Source: Gammaproteobacteria bacterium (GTDB taxonomy: Bacteria > Pseudomonadota > Gammaproteobacteria > Arenicellales > Poriferihabitantaceae). From it: a stretch of DNA of 45,723 bases. The notes below the pieces were generated by a model, which had not been told where the DNA came from, made no database searches, and saw only the letters and a program-made list of their open reading frames with translations. The stretch covers positions 1 to 45,723 of the forward strand of contig JAJDVC010000024.1 in the NCBI GenBank assembly GCA_022826305.1, read 5' to 3'. How positions within the stretch are numbered: position 1 is the first letter of the stretch; the number at the start of each line of letters is the position of its first letter. This document shows positions 24,863-39,120 of this stretch, piece by piece. Made by a program: the position numbers and the translations under genes.

Positions 24863-25357
24863 ATGAACTATCGACCACTTTGCCTGTGCGGATTTCTCGT
24901 CTGCTTCCTGCTGATCGCGACAGCGATGTATTTCCAGCATGTGGCAGGACTTGAACCCTGTCCGCTATGTATCTTTCAGCGGATTGCATTTATCACGCTT
25001 GGCGTGATTTTCCTGGTAGCCGGACTGCATGATCCCCGCGGCCTGATGAGGCGGGTATACGCCGTGCTTGCCATGTCGGCAGGGGTGACGGGATCGGCAA
25101 TAGCCGGTCGGCATGTCTGGTTGCAGAACATTCCCGAGGACCAGGTGCCGGAATGCGGGCCGGGGCTCGAATTCATGCTCGAAGCGATGCCGTTCCAGAC
25201 CATGATAAGGCATGTGCTGAAGGGTTCCGGTGAATGCGCGGAGGTGGTATGGACGCTGTTCGGCCTGTCCATGCCGTCGTGGAGCCTGATCTGGCTTGTA
25301 GCGCTGACACTGCTTGCCTTCAGTCTCTGTCGCATCCCCGCATCGCTGCGTTCATGA
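24863..25357 (+). CDS. dsbB: Disulfide bond formation protein B
   Basis: 164 aa with four TM segments. First periplasmic pair is CPLC, and a second Cys pair lies in the large loop (ECGPG...GECAE). Confidence 0.88.
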   Translation: MNYRPLCLCGFLVCFLLIATAMYFQHVAGLEPCPLCIFQRIAFITLGVIFLVAGLHDPRGLMRRVYAVLAMSAGVTGSAIAGRHVWLQNIPEDQVPECGPGLEFMLEAMPFQTMIRHVLKGSGECAEVVWTLFGLSMPSWSLIWLVALTLLAFSLCRIPASLRS

Positions 25358-25944
25358 CTTTCGACAGCCTGTGCAGGGAAATCCGGCAGTGCACCCGATG
25401 CGCCTCCCACCTGCCCCGCGGGCCCAATCCGGTCTTCCGGGCGCAGCCGGAGGCCAGAATCCTGATAGTCGGGCAGGCGCCCGGGATCCGGGTTCACACC
25501 ACCGGTATCCCGTTCAATGATCCGAGCGGCGATCGCCTGCGTGCCTGGATGGGGGTGGACAGCGACGTATTCTACGACGACTCCCGGATTGCGCTGGTGC
25601 CCATGGGATTCTGCTATCCCGGCACCGGGCCGAACGGCGATCTTCCGCCGCGGGCCGAATGCGCCAGGACCTGGAGAACACCGTTGCTTGCACACCTGTC
25701 AAACATTGTCCTGACCCTGGCGGTAGGGCAGTATGCCATCTCCTGGCATCTTGGAGCGGCAATGCAGAAGAACCTGACCGAAACCGTGAGACACTGGCGG
25801 TCCCATGGTCCGGCGCTGATTCCCTTGCCGCACCCGAGCCCGAGAAACAATCTCTGGCTCGGCAGGAACCCATGGTTCGAGCAGGAAGTTGTTCCGGACC
25901 TGCAGAAAGCAGTCTCCCGGGCGCTGGAAAGGCGCCGTCCATGA
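25354..25944 (+). CDS. Uracil-DNA glycosylase superfamily protein
   Basis: The ATG at 25354 overlaps the dsbB stop (ATGA). The product is 196 aa with a GQAPG motif and a C-terminal HPSPRN motif typical of UDG-fold families 4-6. Confidence 0.75.
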   Translation: MTFDSLCREIRQCTRCASHLPRGPNPVFRAQPEARILIVGQAPGIRVHTTGIPFNDPSGDRLRAWMGVDSDVFYDDSRIALVPMGFCYPGTGPNGDLPPRAECARTWRTPLLAHLSNIVLTLAVGQYAISWHLGAAMQKNLTETVRHWRSHGPALIPLPHPSPRNNLWLGRNPWFEQEVVPDLQKAVSRALERRRP

Positions 25945-26041: not shown

Positions 26042-27190
26042 TCAATCCTTCAGATCCGGTACGGCAGTGCGCTCCGCATACCAGCAGGCGAAGTTTCCGA
26101 CACAGGGCTCGAGATCCGAGAACCTGCCCTGGGTCGCACCCGGGGAAGCCAGACCTGCCTGCTGCCTTTCCAGGACCGGGATATCCTCCGCTATCGCACT
26201 ATCCACCCGTGCACGGTATGATCTGGCCCTTTCCGCATAATCGGCCCTGCGTGTCGTGGCAGAGGGAAAGCACACGCTCTGGACAACCCGCGTAAGCACC
26301 GGGGACAACGGGAAAACGTGATACCCCCACAAGCAGTCCATGCTGGCGGCAAAGGTCAGGTTCGGATAAACCCAGGTATAACGGGTTCCCGAGCGTTCCT
26401 GACCCTCCAGAAGCTCCATTACGGGGAAAGCCTCATCCTGATTCTCGTCCAGCAGTCCGGGATTGCTGCGGGTAATGCCGAACTGCGACGTGAACTGGCC
26501 GAATACCGGGTCAGGCGGATCCGGTTCACAGTAGTGCTGACTGATCGAATCCGGATGCACATAGGGTAAATGGTAGTACTCGTTGAACACTTCCATGAAC
26601 AGTTTCCAGTTGCACTTCACATCGAAAGTCCGAGTGGCGCCGAGTGCCAGGTCTTCCAGGGACCAGCGCCGGTGAAGATCGGAAAAGTCATCCAGCCAGC
26701 TCCCGAGCGGCTCGGGATCCTCCTCGAGACTGACAAAGACATATCCCCCGCAGGTGTCAAGCGGAAATCGGCGCAACCTGTGGTCACACTCGCGAAACCC
26801 GGTTGCCTGCTCCATTCTGGATGCAGAGATCAGCTGTCCGGCATGATCATAGGTCCAGCCATGGAAAGGGCAGACCAGCATCCTGGAGTTTCCGGAACCA
26901 TCAGCAATCAGGCTGCCCCGATGCAGACAGGTATTGGACAGTGCGCCTAACCGAAGATTCTCCTGCCGCACGACAACTATCTGCGCCCCGGCAATTTCCA
27001 GCGCCAGATAGTCACCGGGCTGCTTCCACTGATCCTCCCTGCCCACACACAGCCATCCCTTGCGGAAAACGCGATCCAGTTCATGTCCGTACCATGCGCT
27101 GTCGTGATAGCAGGCCGGCGGCAGGGTCCGGGAACCCGAGACCGGATAATGGACATCTGCCAGTGCTTCCAGCATGTCACCTGAAAACAT
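26042..27190 (-). CDS. Rieske [2Fe-2S] non-heme-iron oxygenase alpha subunit (choline-monooxygenase-like subgroup suspected)
   Basis: The ATG at 27190 shares 1 nt with the stop of the upstream antiporter-like gene (TGATG). Rieske motif is CLHRG-x-...-CPFHGW (C-x-H-x16-C-x2-H). The mononuclear iron motif is NEYYHLPYVH (H-x4-H). Confidence 0.82.
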   Translation of the reverse strand: MFSGDMLEALADVHYPVSGSRTLPPACYHDSAWYGHELDRVFRKGWLCVGREDQWKQPGDYLALEIAGAQIVVVRQENLRLGALSNTCLHRGSLIADGSGNSRMLVCPFHGWTYDHAGQLISASRMEQATGFRECDHRLRRFPLDTCGGYVFVSLEEDPEPLGSWLDDFSDLHRRWSLEDLALGATRTFDVKCNWKLFMEVFNEYYHLPYVHPDSISQHYCEPDPPDPVFGQFTSQFGITRSNPGLLDENQDEAFPVMELLEGQERSGTRYTWVYPNLTFAASMDCLWGYHVFPLSPVLTRVVQSVCFPSATTRRADYAERARSYRARVDSAIAEDIPVLERQQAGLASPGATQGRFSDLEPCVGNFACWYAERTAVPDLKD

Positions 27191-28878
27191 CAGAATCCCC
27201 GATGCAGGTAGAGCACTGCCAGCAGTCCCGCCAGGAACACCATGGTGATCAGGACCATGCCCCGGACATGCCAGGGCATCAGAAGATCGTAGGACTGTCT
27301 GCGCAGGAACGGAATCATCAATGCCACTGTGCCCGTAACCACGGAACGGACCCGGCTGCCGAGGGTCACGGCAGTTCCGTACAGGAGACCGTAAAACGCA
27401 GGCCATGCCTTGCGGTAGAACCACTCGGCATCCAGATTTGTGGATTTCAGTTCCGGAGGATAAAGCCCTGCCAGCTGTAGCCACACGAAGGCCAGGGCAG
27501 AGAAGAACAATAGCTGGACCTGCTCGACGACATGGGGAACGTCAAACGGCATGTAGTCCACGGCAAAGGGAAGATGGCCGTAAAGCAGCCATGGGTAACT
27601 GCCGATGAACACACACAGCCCGGCGGCAAGGGACATGGCGACCAGCATATGCCGGGGGGCTTCCGCAGGACGCTTCCCGGAATCATGGGCAAAAAACGCA
27701 AAGTACGGTATCTTGATGCCCGCATGGTGGAACACACCTGCCGACGCGAACAGCATGGCCAGCCAGACCAGTTCATGGTGCTCTGCCAGCAATGCCGACA
27801 TGACCATGGACTTGCTGACGAACCCGCTGAACAGCGGGAATGCCGAAATCGATGCAGCCCCGACCAGGCAAAGCCCTGCAGTCCCTGGCATGGTCCGAAA
27901 CAACCCGCCGAGTTCGGACCCGCGGATTTCCCCTGTCCTGAACAGGACAGCCCCCATGGTCATCATCAACAGTCCCTTGAAGATGACATCATTGAATGCG
28001 TGGGCAACTGCACCATTGATTGCCAGCTCCGTTCCGATCCCCACGCCACAGACCATGAACCCGATCTGGTTGATCATGCTGTATCCCAGCACGCGACGCA
28101 GGTCATTTTCAATCACCGCATAGAATATGGGGAAGCAGGCCATGATCGCCCCGACATAGATCAGCAGATCCAGTCCGGCGAATGTTCTCGCCAGCGCATA
28201 GACAGCGACCTTCGTGGTAAATGCGCTCAGGAATACCGCACCACTGGGTGTTGCCTCCGGATAGGCATCCGTCAGCCAGTTGTGCAGCATCGGGAATGCC
28301 GCCTTGATTCCGAAAGCCGCAAGGATGAAGACGGCACCGGGATGATCCAGGTCCATTGGCCCCACGTCTATCCCGCCAGTCTCGTAAAACAGTACCAATG
28401 CCCCGGTCAGGAGCAACACGCCGGATAGAACCTGGAAGACCAGATACCGGATGGCCGCCCGAACGGCCCTGGAGGTTCCCCTGGCAGTGATGAAGGGAAC
28501 GGAAGCCAATGCCAGGCATTCCCAGAAAACGAACATGGTGAGCAGGTCCCCGGCATATACAACCCCCAGCGCACTCCCCGGGTACAGCAGTGCGGCAACC
28601 TGCTGTGGCCGGTCCGTAACATGCCAGGAAAATATGATGCCGATGATGGCGGCCACATGGAACAGCACGCCGAAAATGAAACTCAGGCGATCCATGGTGA
28701 AAGGCACCAGATCCAGTCCGAACAGGCCTATCTGCCAGACAGCATCGGGGCTGATCGACAACAGATTGACCAGCCCGGCAACCGGCACAGCCAGCAGGAC
28801 GTGACGACGCAGGGAGGCGGGAGTGAGCAGGGCTGCCAGCGCCCCGGCATAGAGAATCAGGAAGGGCGCGTTAATCAT
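27190..28878 (-). CDS. MrpA/MrpD (NuoL/M/N)-like proton-antiporter subunit, third copy
   Basis: The ATG at 28878 is preceded by GAGGA. The 562-aa polytopic protein has the antiporter-core pattern (LLTMFVFWECLALASVP). Confidence 0.8.
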   Translation of the reverse strand: MINAPFLILYAGALAALLTPASLRRHVLLAVPVAGLVNLLSISPDAVWQIGLFGLDLVPFTMDRLSFIFGVLFHVAAIIGIIFSWHVTDRPQQVAALLYPGSALGVVYAGDLLTMFVFWECLALASVPFITARGTSRAVRAAIRYLVFQVLSGVLLLTGALVLFYETGGIDVGPMDLDHPGAVFILAAFGIKAAFPMLHNWLTDAYPEATPSGAVFLSAFTTKVAVYALARTFAGLDLLIYVGAIMACFPIFYAVIENDLRRVLGYSMINQIGFMVCGVGIGTELAINGAVAHAFNDVIFKGLLMMTMGAVLFRTGEIRGSELGGLFRTMPGTAGLCLVGAASISAFPLFSGFVSKSMVMSALLAEHHELVWLAMLFASAGVFHHAGIKIPYFAFFAHDSGKRPAEAPRHMLVAMSLAAGLCVFIGSYPWLLYGHLPFAVDYMPFDVPHVVEQVQLLFFSALAFVWLQLAGLYPPELKSTNLDAEWFYRKAWPAFYGLLYGTAVTLGSRVRSVVTGTVALMIPFLRRQSYDLLMPWHVRGMVLITMVFLAGLLAVLYLHRGF

Positions 28879-29101
28879 AATGATCCTCGTCCCGCATGAG
28901 CGGTTTGCGCATCCATGTCGCGACCAGCACGAGAATGACACAGGCTGCGAACCCGTACCAGGCGAAGAAACCGAAAAAATTCCACCAGTGCTCTCCGTGC
29001 TTGTTCACGACCAGATCCAGCAGGACCAGGACTCCGCACAGGAGAAAAAAAACTTTCAGCCACTTCCCGAGTCCCGGGGACAGGTTATCGAACCGTTTCA
29101 T
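28871..29101 (-). CDS. Small two-TM membrane protein embedded in the Mrp-like operon
   Basis: The ATG at 29101 overlaps the upstream stop (ATGA), giving 76 aa: MKRFDNLSPGLGKWLKVFFLLCGVLVLLDLVV...FFGFFAWYGFAACVILVLVATW. It overlaps the downstream gene by 8 nt. Confidence 0.6.
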   Translation of the reverse strand: MKRFDNLSPGLGKWLKVFFLLCGVLVLLDLVVNKHGEHWWNFFGFFAWYGFAACVILVLVATWMRKPLMRDEDHYD

Positions 29102-30549
29102 GGGGACGCCATCCTCCGGGTGAGATCGGCCAGCAGCCCCTGCAGATCTCCCGACAGGAAGAAGAGCGCGCAACTCAGCAATGCGGTCAGCACCAGGGGA
29201 CCGATCAGCGCTGGCCGGCATTCCAGCCTGGCTTGAGGCTGTGGCGCGGGAAGGAAGAAAGCGCGCAGGGGAACAGCAAGCAGGTAATACACGTTCATCA
29301 GCGAACTCAGCATCAGGACGCCCAGGATCGCAACCTGTCCCAGTTCAAGCGCTCCCAGTGCAAGATACCACTTGCTCCACACCCCCCCTGTCGGCGGCAG
29401 GCCGGCTATGGACAGGGATGCGACGAAAAAGGCACCGAACGTCCAGGGCATTGACCTGCCCAGGCCATTCATGTCCGAAATGTACTTCTTCCCGGAGCAT
29501 ATCATTATCGCGCCAGCACAGAAGAACAGCGTGATCTTTCCAAACGCATGCATCACGATATGCATTCCGCTTCCGATCAGGGCCAGGGAGTTGGCCATCA
29601 GTGCTCCCGTGACAATGTAGGATAGCTGGCTGACCGTGGAATAGGCCAGCCTTGCCTTGATATCGTCCTGCCTCATTGCAATGAACGAGGCGACAAGGAC
29701 GGTAGCCGCCGGAAACCAGATGAGAATATCGCGCAGGAACACGACATTCAGGAGGTCGTATCCGAAAATGTACACGGTTATCTTGAGCATGGAGAATACC
29801 CCTGCCTTGACCACCGCGACAGCATGCAGCAAGGCGCTGACCGGGGCTGGCGCCACCATGGCCCTGGGCAGCCATCTGTGCAGCGGCATTACCGCGGCCT
29901 TGCCAATCCCGAAGACAAACAACACCAGCAACACTGCCACCAGGGCGGGCGAAGTGGACGCAAGCTGTCCCCCCGGAACAAAGGACAGTCCGGAACCGTA
30001 ATTGCCGACCAGTACAATGGCAAGCAGGAACAGCAGCAGGGAACTTGCCAGCAGTACGCCCAGATAGACCCGGCCTGCAGACACCGCCTCCCGGGTCCGG
30101 CTGTGCGTGACCAGCGGCCAGGTGGAAAAGGTCAGCATTTCATAAAACAGGAACAGGGTAAACAGGTTCTCCGAAAAGGCAATTCCCATCGCACTGCCGA
30201 TCGCGACACAGAACAGGGCATGAAACCGGGTCTGATGCGTATCCCGGCACGCATCCAGATAGCTGACGGCATAGATCGAGGTAATGGGCCACAGTATTCC
30301 TGCAGTCAGGCCGAAAACCAGGCCGAGCGGCTCGACATGGAATGCGATGCTGAGCCCGGGAAGCGTCTCGAACAGCACCTGAACTTCCTGGTATCCGGAC
30401 AGGTTCAGGGCAATATGACCTACCATGGCAAGGTTCCCGATACCCGTCAGGACCAGTACCAGATTTCTCAGGCCGACATGCCTCCGGGCCAAAACAATCC
30501 CTATCGCCCCGAGCAGGGGAATCAGTACGACCGCGGAAACCGGAATCAC
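29098..30549 (-). CDS. MrpA/MrpD (NuoL/M/N)-like proton-antiporter subunit, second copy
   Basis: GTG start at 30549 in a GTGA overlap with the upstream stop. The product is 483 aa with the LFTLFLFYEMLTFSTWPLV core motif. Confidence 0.8.
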   Translation of the reverse strand: MIPVSAVVLIPLLGAIGIVLARRHVGLRNLVLVLTGIGNLAMVGHIALNLSGYQEVQVLFETLPGLSIAFHVEPLGLVFGLTAGILWPITSIYAVSYLDACRDTHQTRFHALFCVAIGSAMGIAFSENLFTLFLFYEMLTFSTWPLVTHSRTREAVSAGRVYLGVLLASSLLLFLLAIVLVGNYGSGLSFVPGGQLASTSPALVAVLLVLFVFGIGKAAVMPLHRWLPRAMVAPAPVSALLHAVAVVKAGVFSMLKITVYIFGYDLLNVVFLRDILIWFPAATVLVASFIAMRQDDIKARLAYSTVSQLSYIVTGALMANSLALIGSGMHIVMHAFGKITLFFCAGAIMICSGKKYISDMNGLGRSMPWTFGAFFVASLSIAGLPPTGGVWSKWYLALGALELGQVAILGVLMLSSLMNVYYLLAVPLRAFFLPAPQPQARLECRPALIGPLVLTALLSCALFFLSGDLQGLLADLTRRMASP

Positions 30550-32036
30550 GAACCGTTTCCGGTGAGGGCGGCAGCCGCCAGCCCAGCCCACCCGGTGACC
30601 AGGGACGCATGAAGCCCGAACCAGAGCACCAGGCCCATTACCACGACCAGCGGGAACCACTCCACGAACGCAAGCGGAGAACGTGTCTGCTGAAGCGGGA
30701 TATCGGCCGGTTTGGCCCAGAGAATCTCGACAATTCTCCAGACATAGGCGGCACTGGCCAGGGATCCCGCCAGTACGGGGATCGCCAGCCACCACCACCC
30801 GCGCTCAACAACGGCAGAAACCAGCACCCACTTGCTCACGAAGCCGGGGGTGCCGGGAAGACCGATCAGTCCCAGTCCGCCGAACAGCAGGGTGTAGCAG
30901 GCGAATCGGTGTGTATGGGCCACACTGCCCAGATGCCTGATACGCGCCGTACCTGTCCGGGCAATCAGTATCCCGACAGCCATGAACACGGCTACCTTGA
31001 TGATGGAATGGTTGAAAAGGTGTACGAGCGCTGCCGCAACCCCGGCGCCGGTACCAAGTCCGATCGCCAGGATGATGTACGAGATCTGGGCCACGCTCGA
31101 CCAGGCGAACATGCGCTTCAGGTTCGATTCCCTCAAGGCGATCAGAGGCGCAACCAGCATGCCGGAAATGGCGCATGCGACCAGGACGATGTCTACAGGA
31201 ACCGAGAGAGCGTGGTCTACGCCGAACAGGTCATGGACAAAACGCAACAGGACATACAGGGCGACCTTGGTAGCAGTTCCGCTGAGCAGGACGGTAACGG
31301 AATTCGGCGCGAAACTGTAGGCATTCGGAAGCCAGTCATGAAGCGGCATCATCGCACACTTGATGCCCAGGCCGATAATCAGGAACGCCAGCGCCATGAT
31401 CACTGTCCTGTTGGCGCCCCGTGCATCGATCCTCTGGGCCAGATCGGTCAGGTTCAGCGTCCCGGTATGCATGTACAGCAGTCCGATGGACAGCAGGATA
31501 AACGTCGCGCCGACTGCCCCCATGACCAGATAGCGATACGAAGCAAGCAGGGCCCTGGGATCGCGACCGCAGCCGATCAGCACATAGGTCGCAAGGGAAC
31601 TGATCTCGAGGAACACGAAGACATTGAATGCGTCGTTGGTCACCACCATGCCGTTCAGGCCGGCCATGCACAACAGCCAGGCAGCGTAGAATGCGGCATG
31701 GGCTCCGCGCCCGAGATTGTCGTCGTTCCTGCCCAGGGCAAAAACTGCCGCAGCCAGGTTCACGAGGTTTATGGTAATCAGCACGAATACCGTAAGCATG
31801 TCGATACGGTATTCGATCCCCCAGGGCGGCGGCCAGCCACCCAGCGCATAGGAAATGACCCCGTCCGGATACACCTGCCCGGCCAGCATGAGCGAGATCG
31901 AGAGCATCACGAGCGCAGTCAGGATCAGCGCGGTCCTTGCCAGGAACCGGCTGCCCGCAAGGACGCACAACGCCGCCACGAGCAACGGGACCACGACCTG
32001 CAGGACCGGCAGGTGTTTCAAGGCGGATGAAATCAC
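30546..32036 (-). CDS. mrpD: MrpD-like (NuoN/M-like) proton-antiporter subunit, first copy
   Basis: GTG start at 32036 in a GTGA overlap with the mrpC stop. The product is 496 aa with the FNVFVFLEISSLATYVLI core motif. Confidence 0.8.
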   Translation of the reverse strand: MISSALKHLPVLQVVVPLLVAALCVLAGSRFLARTALILTALVMLSISLMLAGQVYPDGVISYALGGWPPPWGIEYRIDMLTVFVLITINLVNLAAAVFALGRNDDNLGRGAHAAFYAAWLLCMAGLNGMVVTNDAFNVFVFLEISSLATYVLIGCGRDPRALLASYRYLVMGAVGATFILLSIGLLYMHTGTLNLTDLAQRIDARGANRTVIMALAFLIIGLGIKCAMMPLHDWLPNAYSFAPNSVTVLLSGTATKVALYVLLRFVHDLFGVDHALSVPVDIVLVACAISGMLVAPLIALRESNLKRMFAWSSVAQISYIILAIGLGTGAGVAAALVHLFNHSIIKVAVFMAVGILIARTGTARIRHLGSVAHTHRFACYTLLFGGLGLIGLPGTPGFVSKWVLVSAVVERGWWWLAIPVLAGSLASAAYVWRIVEILWAKPADIPLQQTRSPLAFVEWFPLVVVMGLVLWFGLHASLVTGWAGLAAAALTGNGS

Positions 32037-32407
32037 GGCACGATTTCCGGTTCCACCTCGGGCCTGTCGAAAATCTCGTCCTCGTCGACCGTGCCGTATG
32101 CCCTGCGGATTCGCACGACCAGGGCCAGACCTACCGCGGTCGTGGCAACGCCCACCACAATGGCCGTCAGGATCAGGACATGCGGCAACGGATTGCTGAA
32201 ACGGCTGATCCCGTCGGCCAGAATCGGCGCATGTCCGTTTTCCACCTTGCCCATGGTGATGAACAGCAGGAACACTGCTGACTGGAACATGTTCAACCCT
32301 ACCATTTTCCTGATCATGTTGCGGCTGTCGAGAATCATGACCAGGCCGCAAACGAACAGCCCTATGGCAACCCAGTAGTTGAACAATCCCGGTATCGCGT
32401 CAGTCAC
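32033..32407 (-). CDS. mrpC: MrpC (NuoK-like) subunit
   Basis: 124 aa with three TM helices and a NuoK-like sequence (LNMFQSAVFLLFI..., LTAIVVGVATTAVGLALV). GTG start overlaps the upstream gene by 8 nt. Confidence 0.82.
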   Translation of the reverse strand: MTDAIPGLFNYWVAIGLFVCGLVMILDSRNMIRKMVGLNMFQSAVFLLFITMGKVENGHAPILADGISRFSNPLPHVLILTAIVVGVATTAVGLALVVRIRRAYGTVDEDEIFDRPEVEPEIVP

Positions 32408-33380
32408 CGGTCTGCCCGCTGCGGTTGAAGCTGACGAAAAGGGACAGCATGGTAAACGCTACCGTAATGCCGACTCCGATCTCAATCAGGAGAATGCCCA
32501 GATGCTGCCCGTCCGTGCTGGATTGCGCGAGTACGGAGTAGTCGAGATACTTCCCGCCTCCAAGCATGGATGCGACGCCAACCAGTCCGTAGACCAGTAC
32601 ACCGCCCGCCATGCCGCGGATGATCCACCGCTCGGAAATGACCCCTTGCATGATGCGGGAATCCGTCAGCAAGGCCAGCGTGATCAACCCGGCGCCCAGG
32701 ATCACACCGGCCTGGAATCCGCCGCCGGGGCCATAGTCACCATGAAACTGCACGTAAAGCGCAAACAGGATCACGAGGGGAATGATCCGCGGCATGACAA
32801 CCCTGAGAATCGAATTCGAAATCAGGCCATCCCCGGAATCCTGTCGTGCATGTCCCGCAGCCAGAAGAATCAGTACCGACGTTCCCGCCGTGAAGACCAC
32901 GACCACCTCGCCAAGGGTGTCGTATCCCCGATAGCTGGCCAGCACCGAGGTCACAACATTGGGAATGCCGATTTCCGTTCCGGAATCCTCGAGAAAGCGT
33001 GTCACCAGATGGGTATGAACCGGCACTTGCGGATCACCGTACAACGGCATGTCAAAGGTTCCGAATACCAGAAGCAGTCCGGTTGCCAGGGCAACGACGG
33101 TCGCCAGCGGGCCGGGCCACACGAACAGGCGGCCCGACTCGTCGTCGGGATGAATGACACAGAGAAACAATACGGTCGAGATTCCGGCACCCACCGCCGC
33201 CTCCGTAAACGCCACATCAACCGCATCCATGATGACGAACAGGGAACAGATCGTGAAACTGTAGAGTGCATTCAGAATGATCGTGTTCAGCGGGCTGTTG
33301 CACCGAACCAGCATCAAGGCCGATACCGACAGCACCACCAGCAGGCCCATGTCGACCAGGGCGTTGATTGTCGTAATCAT
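32400..33380 (-). CDS. mrpB: Fused MbhD/DUF4040-like plus MnhB-domain subunit (MrpB-like)
   Basis: The ATG at 33380 overlaps the mrpG stop (ATGA), giving 326 aa. The N-terminal part is DUF4040-like (AVDVAFTEAAVGAGIS). The central MnhB signature is NVVTSVLASYRGYDTLGEVVVV. Confidence 0.78.
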   Translation of the reverse strand: MITTINALVDMGLLVVLSVSALMLVRCNSPLNTIILNALYSFTICSLFVIMDAVDVAFTEAAVGAGISTVLFLCVIHPDDESGRLFVWPGPLATVVALATGLLLVFGTFDMPLYGDPQVPVHTHLVTRFLEDSGTEIGIPNVVTSVLASYRGYDTLGEVVVVFTAGTSVLILLAAGHARQDSGDGLISNSILRVVMPRIIPLVILFALYVQFHGDYGPGGGFQAGVILGAGLITLALLTDSRIMQGVISERWIIRGMAGGVLVYGLVGVASMLGGGKYLDYSVLAQSSTDGQHLGILLIEIGVGITVAFTMLSLFVSFNRSGQTGD

Positions 33381-33700
33381 GGTGCGCACTCCTCGCCCGC
33401 ATCCTTCCCGGCCCCCGACTCCTCTTGCGATGAATCCGGCGCCGCGCGCGCCAGCGCATGAGAAACCACAGGGGAAAGCACCATGGTCAGGATCACCAGC
33501 AGGATCAGCTTGAATCCCGCAACCCAGGTATCGGCATGACACAACAGACCGGCGACCACCAGCCAGATGCCCAGTGTATCGATTACCCCCGCACCGTGCA
33601 GGCGACAGAAGAAATCCGGCAACCGCAACAGCCCTACACTCCCGACCATCACAACGCAGGCGCCGGATATCATCAGCAGTCCGGCAATCAGTTCAATCAT
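33377..33700 (-). CDS. mrpG: MrpG subunit
   Basis: The ATG at 33700 overlaps the mrpF stop, giving 107 aa. The MnhG pattern is present: GSVGLLRLPDFFCRLHGAGVIDTLG. Confidence 0.82.
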   Translation of the reverse strand: MIELIAGLLMISGACVVMVGSVGLLRLPDFFCRLHGAGVIDTLGIWLVVAGLLCHADTWVAGFKLILLVILTMVLSPVVSHALARAAPDSSQEESGAGKDAGEECAP

Positions 33701-33971
33701 GACCCCGAACCCGCCTGGCGCCGAAATACCGCACCAGCGCCAGGCTGCCCACATAATTGATCAGGGCGTACAGCAATGCAATGTCAACATACTCCGGATG
33801 GCCAGATGCCTGGACATAGACGGCGATCAGCAACACGGTCTTGGTGCCGAATGCATTGATCGCAACAATCCGGTCGAACACGGTGGGCCCCAATCCGGAC
33901 CGCACCAGCGAACAGGCCATTGCACAAAGCAGCAGGACGAAGACCGGCAGGTAAAGCCACTCAGCCATCAT
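33693..33971 (-). CDS. mrpF: MrpF subunit
   Basis: The ATG at 33971 (or 33968) overlaps the mrpE stop, giving about 92 aa. The MnhF pattern is present: GPTVFDRIVAINAFGTKTV...ALINYVGSLALVRY. Confidence 0.8.
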   Translation of the reverse strand: MMAEWLYLPVFVLLLCAMACSLVRSGLGPTVFDRIVAINAFGTKTVLLIAVYVQASGHPEYVDIALLYALINYVGSLALVRYFGARRVRGHD

Positions 33972-34467
33972 GACCGCCCCCGTCTGGATGGTCCGCCGAA
34001 AAGAGCGTCTCGACCCGGTTGAGCATGGCATCATCCAGCAGGTCTTCCCGGGACCGCCTCGTCAGGGCATGCACGCGGATCTTCCGTACCGGCATGCCGG
34101 TACTCACCGTGCCCGGGGTAAGCGTAATGGAGTTGGCGTAAACAACCCGTCCCTGTTCATCCAGTTCCCGCGTCGTGACATCAAAAAATCCCGGAGATAT
34201 CCTGCCCGGGGCCAGAATTGCCCTGATCACCTCGACATTCGACTTCAGGACTTCGGGCATCAGCCATGCAAGGTAGCGAAACACGGGAACCGGGCGCAGG
34301 GTGAGCGGCTCCAGTCGGACAAGCGAAGCTGTCCGGCCGTAGACCCCCAGCGCAACCACGCACGATGCGCCCCCCAGCGACATCAGCAACAGGGTGAAAT
34401 GCCCGGAGAGCAGGCACCAGACGGCAACAAGCACCAAAAGACAGGCTATTCGGCTTGAAACAAGCAT
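33961..34467 (-). CDS. mrpE: MrpE subunit
   Basis: 168 aa with an ATG start. MnhE pattern is present: two N-terminal TM helices, then YLAWLMPEVLKSNVEVIRAIL and SITLTPGTVS. Confidence 0.82.
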   Translation of the reverse strand: MLVSSRIACLLVLVAVWCLLSGHFTLLLMSLGGASCVVALGVYGRTASLVRLEPLTLRPVPVFRYLAWLMPEVLKSNVEVIRAILAPGRISPGFFDVTTRELDEQGRVVYANSITLTPGTVSTGMPVRKIRVHALTRRSREDLLDDAMLNRVETLFSADHPDGGGHDG

Positions 34468-35003
34468 TGTCGGAATTCGTCAATATGCTCCGGCTACGGC
34501 CCTGGATACCGGCCTTTCCTGATCCTCTCCTGACTTGCCATGGGCCAGCGCCAGCACATTGGGCCGACCTCATGCCCTGATCAGCCCGCATTCCATCCAG
34601 CTGTCATGACCTGCGGGATCATTTCCTCCCATACTACCTAAATCCAGCCGGATTTTCATCCGCACATGCAATCGGCCGGAACGCCGAGGTCGTATCGAGA
34701 GGCAGCATTCCGGATTCCGCTGATCAGCCTGGTCGACACGCGGGGCCGGATTTTCCAGACTCCGTGCACAGCAGGGCCTGCGGAGTGATCCGGTTCCGCA
34801 TGGCCATGCGACATCATTGGTCTTGTCGATATCATGCATGCAGGCAGGATAAAAACCCGGATCAGGGGTATTCAGCAGTCAAGCAGTCTGGCACAATGCA
34901 GGCGCGGGAAACGGAGGCAGTCTGAAACGGATTCTTGCATGTGTCACTTTCAGCCAATCCACCCCGCGCGACACCGCTGATCTTCAAAAGCCACGGGCCC
35001 ACG

Positions 35004-36038
35004 ATGACGATGACTGTAATTGACCTGCGCAGCGATACGGTGACCCAGCCCTGTCCGGCAATGCGCAAGGCCATGTACGAGGCCGAACTGGGCGACGATG
35101 TATACGGAGAGGATCCGACCGTACGTACCCTGCAGGAAGCACTGAGCGAACGGACCGGCCATCAGGCGGCCCTGTTCTTCCCTTCCGGCACCCAAAGCAA
35201 TCTGGTGGCCCTGCTGACCCATTGCCAGCGGGCAGACGAATACATCGTTGCACAGAATGCCCACACGTACAAGTACGAAGGCGGCGGCGCAGCGGCGCTC
35301 GGTGGGATCCAGCCCCAGCCAATCGAAAGAAGCGAAACCGGCATGCTCGACCTCTGCAGGGTGGAAGCGGCGATCAAGGCGGATGACTTCCATTTTGCCA
35401 GAACCCGGTTGCTTGCCCTGGAAAACACCACCACGGAAGGGGCGGCGGTACCCGCCGAATATCTTGCGGACGCCCGTGCACTGTGCGACAGGCACGGCCT
35501 GTCCCTCCACCTCGATGGAGCGCGGGTCTTCAACGCAGCCGTCTCCCTCGAGGTGGATGTGGCGGAAATCACCGGGGTCTGCGATAGCGTTTCCATCTGC
35601 CTGTCCAAGGGACTGGGCGCGCCCGTCGGTTCGGTACTGTGCGGCAGCACCGAATTCATTGATCGTGCCCGAAGGTGGCGCAAGACGGTGGGCGGTGGAT
35701 TGCGCCAGTCCGGAGTCCTGGCGGCGGCCGGCCTGTTTGCGCTGAAAAACAATGTCGACCGGCTGTCCGATGATCATGCACTGGCCAGGTACCTGTCCGA
35801 CAAGCTCGCGCAGTTCGACGACCTGGAACTCGCTTACGGCGGCGCCCGGACCAATATGGTGTTCTTTTTTCTCAGGAGCGGCCGCTATGCCGCGCTGCAG
35901 GAATTCGGCAAACGAAACGGCGTCCTGTTCGGCGGCCGGAATCCGGTACGCATGGTGACTCACAAGGATCTGACATCCGGCGATATCGACGAGGCCGTCA
36001 ATCGGCTGAGGGGATTCCTTGAACCGGAATCCTCCTGA
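35004..36038 (+). CDS. ltaE: Low-specificity L-threonine aldolase
   Basis: The ATG at 35004 (or 35010) gives [19 protein letters not shown]...[11 protein letters not shown]...FPSGTQSN, with the Lys site in [14 protein letters not shown]. Confidence 0.88.
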
Positions 36039-36091: not shown

Positions 36092-37129
36092 TCATATGGA
36101 CGGTAGTGCGCTCCAGTACTGAGAAGGGGTGACCGTACCGGTGCGATGGCCGCGGGTATTGCAAACAGCCGGTGCAAAGTGGCAGGACAAGGCATCGTAC
36201 TCCGCATCGCTGATCGCGCCCAGCTTCTTCAGAAGCGCTCCCAGAACCACTGCGCTCGCCCTGCTCCCCCCATCATCGATCTTGATCGCCAGGCCAAGGC
36301 CAAGATCGGGCACAACACCGACATAGACTCCCTCCGCGCCGACCTTGACCAGAACCCGTCCGCCTGTCCGGCAGACGACATCCGTACAGCATCGTCCCGT
36401 ACCTGCCAGCATCAGGGGTGCTTCAGCAATCACGCGCAGGATCCTGGATATCGCCAGCCTGCGCGCTGAATCCCTGACAGCACGCGGACTGGCATACAGG
36501 GCACAGGCATGTGCCAGCGCCTCGAGCGGCATGCAGACCGCCGGCATGCCACAACCATCCTGCTCCCAGGGCAAGGCAGCGACATCCAGATCGACCAGCG
36601 ACGAAAAACTGGCCATCCAGGCCTGCTGCACGGCATGGCCGTGCCCGATATAGCCGGCAGTGCCCTTGTCGAGATGCCGGGCCATGGTCAGCATTCCCGC
36701 ATGTTTCCCGGAACAGGCCTGATGGAGGCTCGAAGGCGTTGCTCCGCATCGCACGAGTTCCCGCTTGCTGCACTTCGACAGGGGCATGGCCGGGCCATTC
36801 TCCAGGTCATCGACGCCCAGTCCGAGACCGTCAAGCCAGCGGGCAACCGTTTCGACATGAATCCGCTCACCACTGTGCGAAGCGCAGGCAAGCACGATTT
36901 CCGGGATGCCCAACCTGAAACGATCCGCCGCCCCCGACTCGATCAACGGCAGCGCCTGGAAAAACTTTATCGCCGACCTGGGATAAACATGGCGCCTGGC
37001 GTCCCCTGCCGAGAAAACCGTCTCCCCGCTGCCGTTAACCGCTACCACGCTGCCGCGGTGTGCGGATTCCGTAATGTCTCCACGGACCACTTCTGCCAGC
37101 ACGGGGTTGGAGTCGCCGGTATCCGACAT
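36092..37129 (-). CDS. Asparaginase-II family protein (L-asparaginase II-like)
   Basis: The ATG at 37129 is preceded by AGGAG, giving 345 aa. Family blocks are ESAHRGSVVAV, YPRSAIKFFQALPL, CASHSGE and CSGKHAGML. Confidence 0.75.
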   Translation of the reverse strand: MSDTGDSNPVLAEVVRGDITESAHRGSVVAVNGSGETVFSAGDARRHVYPRSAIKFFQALPLIESGAADRFRLGIPEIVLACASHSGERIHVETVARWLDGLGLGVDDLENGPAMPLSKCSKRELVRCGATPSSLHQACSGKHAGMLTMARHLDKGTAGYIGHGHAVQQAWMASFSSLVDLDVAALPWEQDGCGMPAVCMPLEALAHACALYASPRAVRDSARRLAISRILRVIAEAPLMLAGTGRCCTDVVCRTGGRVLVKVGAEGVYVGVVPDLGLGLAIKIDDGGSRASAVVLGALLKKLGAISDAEYDALSCHFAPAVCNTRGHRTGTVTPSQYWSALPSI

Positions 37130-37380
37130 CTCTTGCTCCTGTCTGTTGCTGTCGGCAACCGCACGCCGTCTTGCGGAGCAGGCGTCGCTGCGCGTCTGAT
37201 CCTCCACGGTTTCGGCACGAAGTTGCTGGCCGGATTGTATCAGGCACGATCACGGAACATCCAGCCTCCAGTCCGCCCATGCCGATTCCCTGATGGCCCG
37301 GCAGGAACCGGGATTTGCATATCTGCCGAATAGACAGTATAAATCCGCATACAGATCCTGAATCCACGCCGCGAGACCCC

Positions 37381-39120
37381 ATGCGCACCTCCGAGATCCT
37401 GCTTGCAACACTCAAGGAATCTCCTGCCGATGCAGAGGTCGTATCACACAAGCTGATGCTGCGGGCGGGAATGATCCGGCAAGTGGCCGCAGGCATCTAC
37501 AACTGGCTGCCGACCGGGATGCGCGTGCTGAACAAGGTACAGCGCATCGTCCGGGAGGAAATGGATCGTTCCGGCGCGCAGGAAGTGCTCCTTCCGGGCG
37601 TACAGCCGGCAATGCTCTGGCAGGAATCCGGACGGTGGGAGGAATATGGTCCGGAACTGCTGCGCCTTCAGGACCGGCACGGCCGGAATTTCTGCCTGGG
37701 GCCGACACATGAGGAGGTCATCACCGCGCTGGTCAGGAACGAAATTCGCAGTTATCGGCAACTGCCCCAGAACTACTACCAGATCCAGACCAAGTTCAGG
37801 GATGAGATCCGCCCCCGCTTCGGCATCATGCGCGGGCGCGAATTCATCATGAAGGATGCGTATTCATTCCACGCAAGCCTGGAGTCCCTGCAGCAGGCCT
37901 ATGACCTGATGCACTCCACCTACAGCGCGATCTTCAGGCGCATGGGACTCGAGTTCAGATCCGTATCCGCAGATTCGGGCACTATCGGGGGGGAAACCTC
38001 CCACGAGTTTCACGTTCTGGCGGACTCCGGAGAAGATGCAATCGCGTTTTCCAGCGGAAGCGACTATGCCGCCAACATCGATCTTGCGGAGGCAGTTGCC
38101 CCGGCGGCGGCAAGACGGAAACCGCAGCAGGAACTCAAGCTCGTCGACACACCGGGCATACGCACCATAAACGGGCTGGTGGAGAGTTTCCGGATTCCGA
38201 TCGAAAAGACCATAAAGACCCTTGTTGTTCACGCGTCCGAACAATGCTCCTGTCCCGTGGTTGCACTGCTGGTTCGCGGGGATCATCAACTGAATCCTGT
38301 CAAGGCGGAGAAACTAGAACTGGTGGCCTCTCCATTGCGCATGGCTGACGAATCCGAAATCCGCGACGCCATTGGTGCGGGCGCGGGGTCGCTCGGGCCG
38401 GTCAACCTTCCCGTACCGTGCATTGCAGATCACAGCGTTGCGGCACTGTCCGACTTCAGCGCCGGTGCGAATGTCGATGACAAGCACTACTTCGGGATCA
38501 ACTGGGAGCGGGACGTGGACTTGTGCCGGTCTGCGGATATCAGAAACATCGAGGCGGGAGATCCCAGCCCGGACGGACAGGGCCACATCACCATTGCCCG
38601 GGGCGTAGAGGTCGGGCATATCTTTCAGCTCGGCAGAAAGTACAGTACCGCACTGGATGCCAGGGTGCTTGATGAAACCGGAAAGGCGGTCGACATGTAC
38701 ATGGGCTGCTATGGAATCGGGGTGACCCGCGTAATCGCAGCGGCCATAGAACAGAACCATGATCAACAGGGCATCGTGTGGCCGGAATCCATTGCTCCCT
38801 GGCAAGTTGTCATCATCCCGATCGGGTTGCATGGCTCGCAGCAGGTCCGCGCGGCGGCCGCAGCAATCCATGATCAGCTTGCCGCGGCCGGACTCGAGGT
38901 GCTGCTGGATGATCGAAATGAAAGGCCCGGCGCGATGTTTGCCGATATGGAGTTGATCGGCATTCCGCACAGGATAGTCATCGGGGAACGGAGCCTTGCG
39001 CGTAATGTCGTGGAATACCGTCATCGCACAGGCAGTGAAGAGTGCGAGCTGAGTCTGGATAGCCTGGTCGGGGAACTGGGCAGGCGTCTTGAAGGTTCCG
39101 GTTGCTCGACAGCTGCATGA
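37381..39120 (+). CDS. proS: Prolyl-tRNA synthetase (bacterial type with INS editing domain)
   Basis: The ATG at 37381 gives [34 protein letters not shown], 579 aa. Class II motifs are present ([34 protein letters not shown]). Confidence 0.95.

Follow-up and report, generated by a model that had tools for sequence, protein, structure and literature searches.

A Rieske oxygenase behind an Mrp-like antiporter operon in a sponge-associated gammaproteobacterium: probably the passenger of a single insertion

In contig JAJDVC010000024.1 of a gammaproteobacterial genome (Arenicellales; Poriferihabitantaceae; GenBank assembly GCA_022826305.1), the 45,723 nucleotides of which are called the window here, the start codon of a Rieske non-heme-iron oxygenase gene overlaps the stop codon of the last gene of an operon for an Mrp-like Na+/H+ antiporter. 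The question raised by this locus is whether the oxygenase serves the antiporter. When the stop of the last Mrp subunit and the start of a redox enzyme overlap exactly, the pair mimics a new redox-coupled antiporter, and the case is a caution, as comparative genomics points to a one-off insertion. Most likely the oxygenase is a beta-less group V enzyme from a widespread marine clade, in front of which an Mrp cluster was inserted once, making it a passenger and not a partner of the antiporter. The two genes adjoin only in a single clade of sponge-associated Arenicellales ('Candidatus Poriferihabitaceae'), and the genome comparisons do not support a functional link between the oxygenase and the Mrp complex.

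At the junction between the two genes, the minus strand reads ...GGGGATTCTGATGTTTTCAGG... on direct inspection. The antiporter stop and the oxygenase start have one base in common within a TGATG (27188..27192, minus strand), as the initial annotation had described. The TGA at 27192-27190 closes the open reading frame (ORF) 27190..28941 and the ATG at 27190-27188 opens a frame of 382 amino acids (aa) ending at 26042. This is the oxygenase gene (26042..27190, minus strand, stop codon 26044-26042), which is apparently of the alpha-only type, judging from its ORF, Pfam domains, PDB relatives, and an AlphaFold (AF2) model. An alternative start, M6, lies 14 nt inside the gene and with either start the gene spacing is 14 nt or less; M1 is preferred because no shorter N-termini than that of the M1 form are seen in orthologs. 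Around the junction, a consensus scan of the minus strand recognised nothing promoter-like, and the number of terminator-like sites does not exceed that in shuffled sequences (7 against 9.1 expected). The overlap makes it likely that the oxygenase is co-transcribed with the Mrp genes in this genome and suggests that it is probably translationally coupled to the last Mrp subunit. The stretch is present in three public runs, all of DNA and all from one sponge-metagenome study, and one of these may be its source; no RNA run contains it.

The association was assessed from the Mrp side using the last antiporter-like subunit (MrpD3), which belongs to the NF009310 class. Of 400 genomes sampled from the class, 70 have an NF009310-type subunit that scores over the cut-off, with one further genome of the class sample not scored, and none of 14 control genomes has one. 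Thirty class-level Mrp loci were examined by tblastn, each with 1.5 kb downstream. The preceding MrpD-like gene is present in 29 and a relative of the 76-aa ORF that lies between two of the window's antiporter genes in 17, while the oxygenase is downstream of the last Mrp subunit in none. Closer to the window, the subunit is present in 22 of 41 relatives, the window's genome included, and is followed by the oxygenase in seven, all of one family (the window's own genome, G001, G012, G013, G014, G019, and G023; G-numbers denote the genomes of relatives), and in none of the other 15. A close Mrp operon, with an MrpD3 that is 72% identical, is followed in G015 by a sulfotransferase, without an oxygenase behind it. 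Two order-level relatives have both genes megabases apart, at 0.27 and 2.76 Mb in G025 and at 4.65 and 0.73 Mb in G036. No downstream ORF family is common to more than four of the 45 Mrp loci without the oxygenase, and an Mrp operon normally ends with its last MrpD-like subunit. The suggestion in the initial annotation that osmolyte turnover is tied to a Na+/H+-handling complex is not supported by these counts, the adjacency being found in one family-level clade and at none of the 30 and 15 Mrp loci elsewhere.

From the oxygenase side, a genome scan returned 353 oxygenase loci (L-numbers), of which the best 80 were surveyed. An MrpD3 homolog ends 60 to 230 nt before the oxygenase match in ten of the 80 (L021, L023, L024, L025, L026, L027, L029, L033, L039, and L048) and is 1.7 to 3.8 kb upstream in three others (L022, L028, and L030). 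Mrp was not seen in the remaining 67, although two of these, L044 and L088, hold less than 200 nt upstream and cannot be judged. Together with the counts from the Mrp side (0 of 30 class-level loci and 7 of 22 among the relatives), these 67 loci speak against the co-occurrence of the oxygenase with Mrp-like clusters that the initial annotation had proposed to check. Oxygenase orthologs that are 53 to 58% identical occur in G004, a genome 94% complete, and in G017, a single contig that is 97% complete, and neither genome has an NF009310 match at E<=1e-80.

Even where the two are linked, the junction varies. Based on exact gene ends, the gaps in the ten adjacent loci are about 10 to 190 nt and none is an overlap. 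There is a promoter-like site in the gap of L026, which is a consensus match only, and none in that of L027. In the three loci where Mrp is near, the Mrp genes and the oxygenase are separated by a HindIII-type restriction-modification pair, a phage-type integrase block, and an opposite-strand AhpC-family gene. The junction appears to be an insertion hot spot. In the first of these inserts (L022:7912-9844) the HindIII-type endonuclease is split into two ORFs beside a DNA methylase, and the integrase block (L030:6434-9778) also encodes DUF6884 and a HATPase/DUF4325 protein. At L048, from a chromosome-level metagenome-assembled genome (MAG), the oxygenase beside Mrp (L048:10001-11105) has a frameshift where the Rieske motif begins, at its first Cys-x-His, and is either a pseudogene or the product of an assembly error.

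The origin of the adjacency was sought in a tree of 79 locus proteins and the window's protein, in which L048 is a partial row and from which L050 was left out for having no intact ORF over the match. All 13 genes adjacent to or near Mrp, L048 among them, group with the window in a clade of 17 rows with SH-aLRT support of 99, together with L031, L032, and L034, which have no Mrp in the vicinity. The sister clade of seven rows has no Mrp, and the other 56 rows have neither the Mrp nor the ltaE arrangement. In sister loci L035, L037, and L040, the order is proS (-), asparaginase II (+), an ltaE-like gene (-), and the oxygenase (+), uninterrupted by Mrp genes, and in L041, also of the sister clade, ltaE adjoins the oxygenase. 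Read in the direction of the oxygenase, the window has the same order and the same orientations, with the Mrp operon of 7.3 kb between ltaE and the oxygenase. Because the sister genomes keep this order with nothing between, the most parsimonious account, and a probable one, is a single insertion that brought the Mrp cluster in behind ltaE and ahead of the oxygenase, with disruptions in places later on. Other genes are also found in this space. An M24 creatinase-like gene and/or a PF06684 gene lies between ltaE and mrpE in L021, L023, L025, L033, L039, and L048. At L032 (L032:213-6919), where the oxygenase ortholog is 55% identical, the space between ltaE and the oxygenase contains no Mrp but M24, PF06684, and, on the opposite strand, NhaB.

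Several points weigh against an insertion that left the oxygenase as a mere passenger. The tree comes from a quick IQ-TREE search and was rooted at its midpoint, and it is by parsimony that the insertion is polarised. The start/stop overlap is exact in this genome. The adjacency is kept in seven of the eight genomes of the family with a close Mrp, G015 being the eighth, mostly with short same-strand gaps, and this could reflect selection beyond inheritance. That a Na+/H+ antiporter, NhaB, should be at the same spot in L032, a member of the clade without Mrp, is an odd coincidence.

A rival reading is an adaptive regulatory coupling, in which the clade has kept the oxygenase in the Mrp operon because a tie between the breakdown of a quaternary-ammonium osmolyte and Na+/H+ antiporter expression is useful when salt or pH is stressful, without physical contact between the proteins. 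It would fit with the same strand and short gaps in seven of the ten adjacent loci, the one-base overlap in the window, the quaternary-amine signature of the oxygenase described below, and NhaB at the equivalent site in L032. Nevertheless, we consider it unlikely. The adjacency has a single origin, so there is no independent replication; the linkage has been broken by mobile or unrelated genes in three genomes and by a frameshift in one; the longer gap of L026 has its promoter-like site; and G025 and G036 maintain the two genes far apart. In addition, the synteny of the downstream DsbB and UDG genes is equally conserved, as plain inheritance predicts. It is quite doubtful, too, that the overlap has been kept and tightened because it is useful, with an enzyme that destroys a cationic osmolyte being made in fixed proportion to the Na+/H+ antiporter. 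Were this so, the locus would represent a new lineage-specific regulon connecting salt and pH to osmolytes, and NhaB at the L032 site would no longer be a coincidence. That the coupling is exploited for regulation is a modest possibility.

The single-insertion account leaves the oxygenase to be understood in its own right. In Pfam it matches the Rieske domain (PF00355; 3.3e-18, 65.8 bits against a cut-off of 20.3) and Ring_hydroxyl_A (PF00848; 2.9e-33, 116 bits against a cut-off of 24.9). The initial annotation was correct in reporting complete Rieske and catalytic iron motifs. The translation contains the Rieske [2Fe-2S] motif C88-L-H90-x16-C107-P-F-H110 (26861..26929, minus strand) and N203-E204-Y-Y-H207-x4-H212. 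In a set of 32 family members, none departs from C88, H90, C107, and H110, which align with Cys86, His88, Cys106, and His109 of CntA. In the catalytic domain, a hidden Markov model (HMM) alignment pairs N-W-K-V-I-V-D-N-Y-M-E-C-Y-H-C-G-P-A-H of CntA with N-W-K-L-F-I-E-V-F-N-E-Y-Y-H-L-P-Y-V-H of the oxygenase. The segment F202-N203-E204-Y-Y-H207-L-P-Y-V-H212 (26555..26587, minus strand) thereby acquires the pi-cation position, the bridging glutamate, and two iron-ligand histidines: F202 corresponds to CntA Y203, a pi-cation substrate contact, where Stc2 has Asn in the same alignment; E204 to E205, the bridging glutamate of CntA; and H207 and H212 to H208 and H213, its iron ligands. The third iron ligand, the carboxylate of the His-His-Asp triad, is D336 (26183..26185, minus strand), which lies in a conserved E-D motif and aligns with the iron ligand Asp323 of CntA. 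F202, E204, H207, H212, and D336 are invariant in all 32 family members.

The significance of the phenylalanine comes from work on CntA. The passages covered of PMC7948474 assign the roles of Y203, E205, H208, and H213, describe the pi-cation contact of Y203 with the trimethylammonium group, and report the Y203F mutant to be active. According to the same passages, Tyr or Phe at this position marks group Va (CntA, choline monooxygenases, and OxyBAC), and Asn marks group Vb (GbcA/BmoA and Stc2), enzymes that demethylate and have the carboxylate of the substrate bound at the iron. A Cys206/Cys209 pair beside the iron has been described for some group V members in the part of PMC10952381 that was covered. 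This Cys-x-x-Cys pair is absent from the oxygenase, in which Y205 and L208 replace C206 and C209 of CntA in the HMM alignment.

Overall similarity agrees with this placement. A profile built from the 32 family members was searched against the PDB and matched CntA with 161 bits (residues 20-357), Stc2 with 145 bits, and 3N0Q with 132 bits. The AF2 model has a mean predicted local distance difference test (pLDDT) of 85.1 and a predicted template-modelling score (pTM) of 0.87, and in a Foldseek search with this model CntA came first, followed by Stc2, 3N0Q, and then the alpha-beta enzymes. Given that CntA and Stc2 are the best profile and fold matches, together with the bridging Glu and the invariant Phe at the Y203 position, the combined sequence and model comparisons support placing the oxygenase with the beta-less CntA/choline monooxygenase/GbcA/Stc2-type enzymes of group V, apart from the classical alpha-beta ring dioxygenases. 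On the same grounds, the oxygenase is supported as group Va-like in sequence, and as neither a CntA ortholog nor GbcA. The guess of a choline monooxygenase/GbcA/CntA-like subgroup in the initial annotation was therefore well placed. On the other side of the balance, the group Va assignment stands on one aligned position along with overall similarity, and F258, N270, and F319 of the CntA pocket have no like residues in the oxygenase, where the alignment is unreliable. The AF2 model has low pLDDT at residues 227-235, and the poorly aligned region of the CntA pocket residues was not relied upon.

It could instead be supposed that the oxygenase is an ordinary alpha subunit of an aromatic ring-hydroxylating dioxygenase, with its beta subunit and electron carriers encoded elsewhere. 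The Pfam name of the catalytic domain and database names such as 'aromatic ring-hydroxylating dioxygenase subunit alpha' suggest as much, and classical alpha subunits do match the N-terminal half. However, these score at most 129 bits and align only as far as residue ~208-234, compared with residues 20-357 for CntA. The target-normalised TM-scores of the alpha-beta enzymes are mostly 0.62-0.69, against 0.72-0.79 for CntA and Stc2, and their root-mean-square deviations are mostly higher. The bridging residue is Glu, not Asp, there is a Phe at the pi-cation site, and the short architecture of 382 aa is typical of alpha3 enzymes. It is thus very unlikely that this is a ring dioxygenase. A beta-subunit family is not among the 29 annotated recurrent neighbour families of the best 80 loci, nor does one adjoin the window's gene. 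The initial annotation had noted that no beta-subunit, ferredoxin, or reductase gene is adjacent, and this stands. By Pfam, the neighbours are the MrpD-like gene upstream and, downstream, a convergent UDG-family glycosylase (25234-25944, plus strand), DsbB (24863-25357, plus strand, also convergent), and an SDR, the glycosylase and DsbB being syntenic in related loci.

The oxygenase is an additional member of an established enzyme kind, adjacent to Mrp in one clade only, and its relation to known enzymes can be stated in some detail. CntA/YeaW (PDB 6Y8J, 6Y8S, and 6ZGP; group Va) is the best relative in both searches (Foldseek E 3e-25, TM 0.70-0.79) and has the same Rieske ligands, His-His-Asp triad, and bridging Glu, an aromatic residue at the Tyr203 position, and, as is probable for the oxygenase too, no beta subunit. 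Yet the identity is only ~22-23% over the structural alignment, no CntB-type reductase gene adjoins the oxygenase, and the oxygenase is not an ortholog, its substrate presumably being another. The stachydrine demethylase Stc2 (PDB 3VCA and 4QUP; group Vb), with TM 0.72-0.79 and 24-25% identity, has a beta-less alpha3 architecture, presumably the same as that of the oxygenase, and a bridging Glu, but Asn where the oxygenase family has Phe, and the sequence alignment of the catalytic domains is patchy. The third-best relative, TM1040_3219 (PDB 3N0Q), is a beta-less 'putative aromatic-ring hydroxylating dioxygenase' from a marine bacterium; it is ~22% identical and itself uncharacterised, so it provides no functional lead. 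GbcA (NF058607) is the best-scoring NCBIfam model, but at 140.4 bits it is far below the cut-off of 670 and covers only residues 18-217, and the identification of the oxygenase as GbcA was rejected on this basis. No protein anywhere in the genome reaches the GbcA cut-off, the best being one of 326 bits on another contig.

The Mrp system is evolutionarily kin to redox-driven complexes, and hydrogenase or NADH modules feed electrons into Mbh and complex I. That kinship and the translational coupling in this genome are all that speak for the Rieske protein being a peripheral redox or regulatory subunit of the Mrp-like complex, the electron input or regulatory module that the initial annotation had offered as an alternative, and this is improbable in the extreme. 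The protein is catalytically complete and its length is usual for an oxygenase: it has 382 aa, and of the 119 other proteins listed, one has 444 aa and the rest 376-397 aa. Orthologs in genomes without Mrp show that it has gained no additional segment for docking. Beyond the clade, the oxygenase is found at 0 of 30 and 0 of 15 Mrp loci. Each also occurs without the other, even inside the family, the same Mrp without the oxygenase in G015 and the oxygenase without Mrp in G004 and G017.

With the oxygenase taken as a group V enzyme and the Mrp cluster as a later arrival, the following course of events can be proposed. The protein would be soluble, presumably an alpha3 homotrimer, and would belong to group V, the quaternary-ammonium branch. 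If it works as CntA does, its Rieske cluster would be reduced by an NAD(P)H-dependent reductase from another locus and the electron would cross the subunit interface via Glu204 to the iron held by His207, His212, and Asp336. There O2 would be activated and a small cationic nitrogen compound, for which Phe202 would form part of the binding site, would be hydroxylated, with C-N cleavage or demethylation as the probable next step. Ancestrally to one sponge-associated Arenicellales clade, a whole Mrp cluster would have inserted between the ltaE-like gene and the oxygenase, leaving the latter at the 3' end of the operon, and the spacer in this genome would have shrunk to a one-base overlap. The oxygenase would ride as a passenger, neither a subunit nor a dedicated partner of the antiporter.

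A candidate for the reductase is encoded on another contig of the genome (C129:3281-4300; L163:727-1746, minus strand). This 339-aa protein has Fer2, FAD_binding_6, and NAD_binding_1 domains and is the sole FNR-type reductase with an N-terminal plant-type ferredoxin domain found in the genome, where there are about 10 to 13 Rieske paralogs. Its gene is an orphan, flanked by a glutamine-synthetase-like gene and fpg. It is plausible that it is a shared electron donor for the oxygenase, and it may serve all of the Rieske paralogs of the genome. With this reductase as a tblastn query, no homologs were found within the best 80 oxygenase loci.

The value of the locus lies in the enzyme family, a large and well-conserved group V Rieske clade with 353 genome loci and an invariant Phe at the quaternary-amine position. 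A protein search found 595 proteins at E<=1e-20. Among the matches listed, the 119 other proteins are 46 to 83% identical and carry generic names only. The best 80 loci are from Gammaproteobacteria, Alphaproteobacteria, Actinomycetota (Acidimicrobiia), and one Myxococcota MAG, and the closest are in Arenicellales, 'Candidatus Poriferihabitaceae', and 'Candidatus Spongiihabitans' MAGs. A protein-mode search of a plasmid collection gave 264 records, all less than 60% identical; the 40 listed are at most 32% identical, have generic names, and include no reference enzymes. Literature searches, in the portions of the papers that they covered, returned nothing on an Mrp-linked Rieske oxygenase and, for Rieske oxygenases and quaternary-ammonium compounds, marine and sponge symbionts, and carnitine, no characterised member of the oxygenase clade. 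From these searches and the generic database names, the clade is supposed to be without a characterised member.

Some indication of function may come from the genes that recur around the oxygenase. In the best 80 loci, these are, by tblastn, amidase (11), TRAP DctM (11), PF06684 'AA_synth' (10), cupin (10), GFA-family (6), and RidA (6), and there are DctQ and DctP clusters in 8 loci each. In the majority of the seven loci of its cluster, the PF06684 gene comes next after the oxygenase, on its strand. An ltaE-like aldolase gene likewise recurs near the oxygenase in other lineages. In L045, L070, L071, L077, L086, and L090, all from non-sponge marine lineages, a PF06684 (DUF1185, 'AA_synth') gene adjoins the oxygenase, mostly right behind it and in the same orientation, often with an amidase and a TRAP transporter near the pair, forming a recurrent uncharacterised gene set. 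These neighbours are weak hints of the catabolism of a small nitrogenous organic acid, and they come from a few related, non-independent subclades. Sponges and seawater may both be rich in such an acid. When the PF06684 protein of L032 served as query, no PF06684 gene was found in the window's genome, which is 90.8% complete, so its absence is not shown. The part of the PF06684 structure paper (PMC2954203) that was covered makes no mention of Rieske, amidase, or creatinase. The ltaE gene was considered as a functional partner and rejected, as it belongs, together with proS and asparaginase II, to a housekeeping block of conserved synteny. In the window, prolyl-tRNA synthetase (proS) is at 37315-39120 on the plus strand, asparaginase II (ansII) at 36092-37207 on the minus strand, and the ltaE-like beta-eliminating lyase at 34935-36038 on the plus strand, all as assigned by Pfam. 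In the 470 nt divergent region between mrpE and the ltaE-like gene (34467-34935), a consensus scan gave promoter-like matches only on the plus (ltaE) strand, and no promoter for the Mrp operon was recognised in it.

The Mrp-like operon is on the same strand as the oxygenase and has the build mrpEFG-B-C-D-D-x-D. From Pfam and NCBIfam matches, with approximate starts, it consists of mrpE (33961-34467), mrpF (33693-34034), mrpG (33377-33754), an MbhD/MbhE/MnhB fusion (32400-33542), mrpC (32033-32407), a first MrpD-like gene (~30546-32030), and a second (29098 to ~30550), all on the minus strand, after which come the 76-aa ORF and MrpD3. It is a typical member of the Mrp (CPA3) operons and the same D-x-D order is present in other Gammaproteobacteria. 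The difference is at its end, for a typical operon finishes with the last MrpD-like gene, whereas here there is a Rieske gene behind it. MrpD3 (27190..28878, minus strand) is an MrpD-type protein (PF00361) of the NF009310/PRK12668 class, matching NF009310 with 667 bits against a cut-off of 564, and has 562 aa from the ATG at 28878-28876 or 583 aa from the first GTG. The small ORF before it (28871..29101, minus strand; 76 aa from the ATG at 29101), identified from the sequence and its tblastn relatives, encodes a conserved membrane protein with apparently two hydrophobic stretches and no Pfam family over the cut-off. An ATGA joins its start to the stop of the MrpD-like gene before it, and the ATG at 28878 lies within its end, so the 3' part of the operon is tightly packed in this genome. 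Relatives of this ORF between two MrpD-like genes, found by tblastn in 17 of the 30 class-level Mrp loci, are present in all 13 of the Mrp-bearing oxygenase loci.

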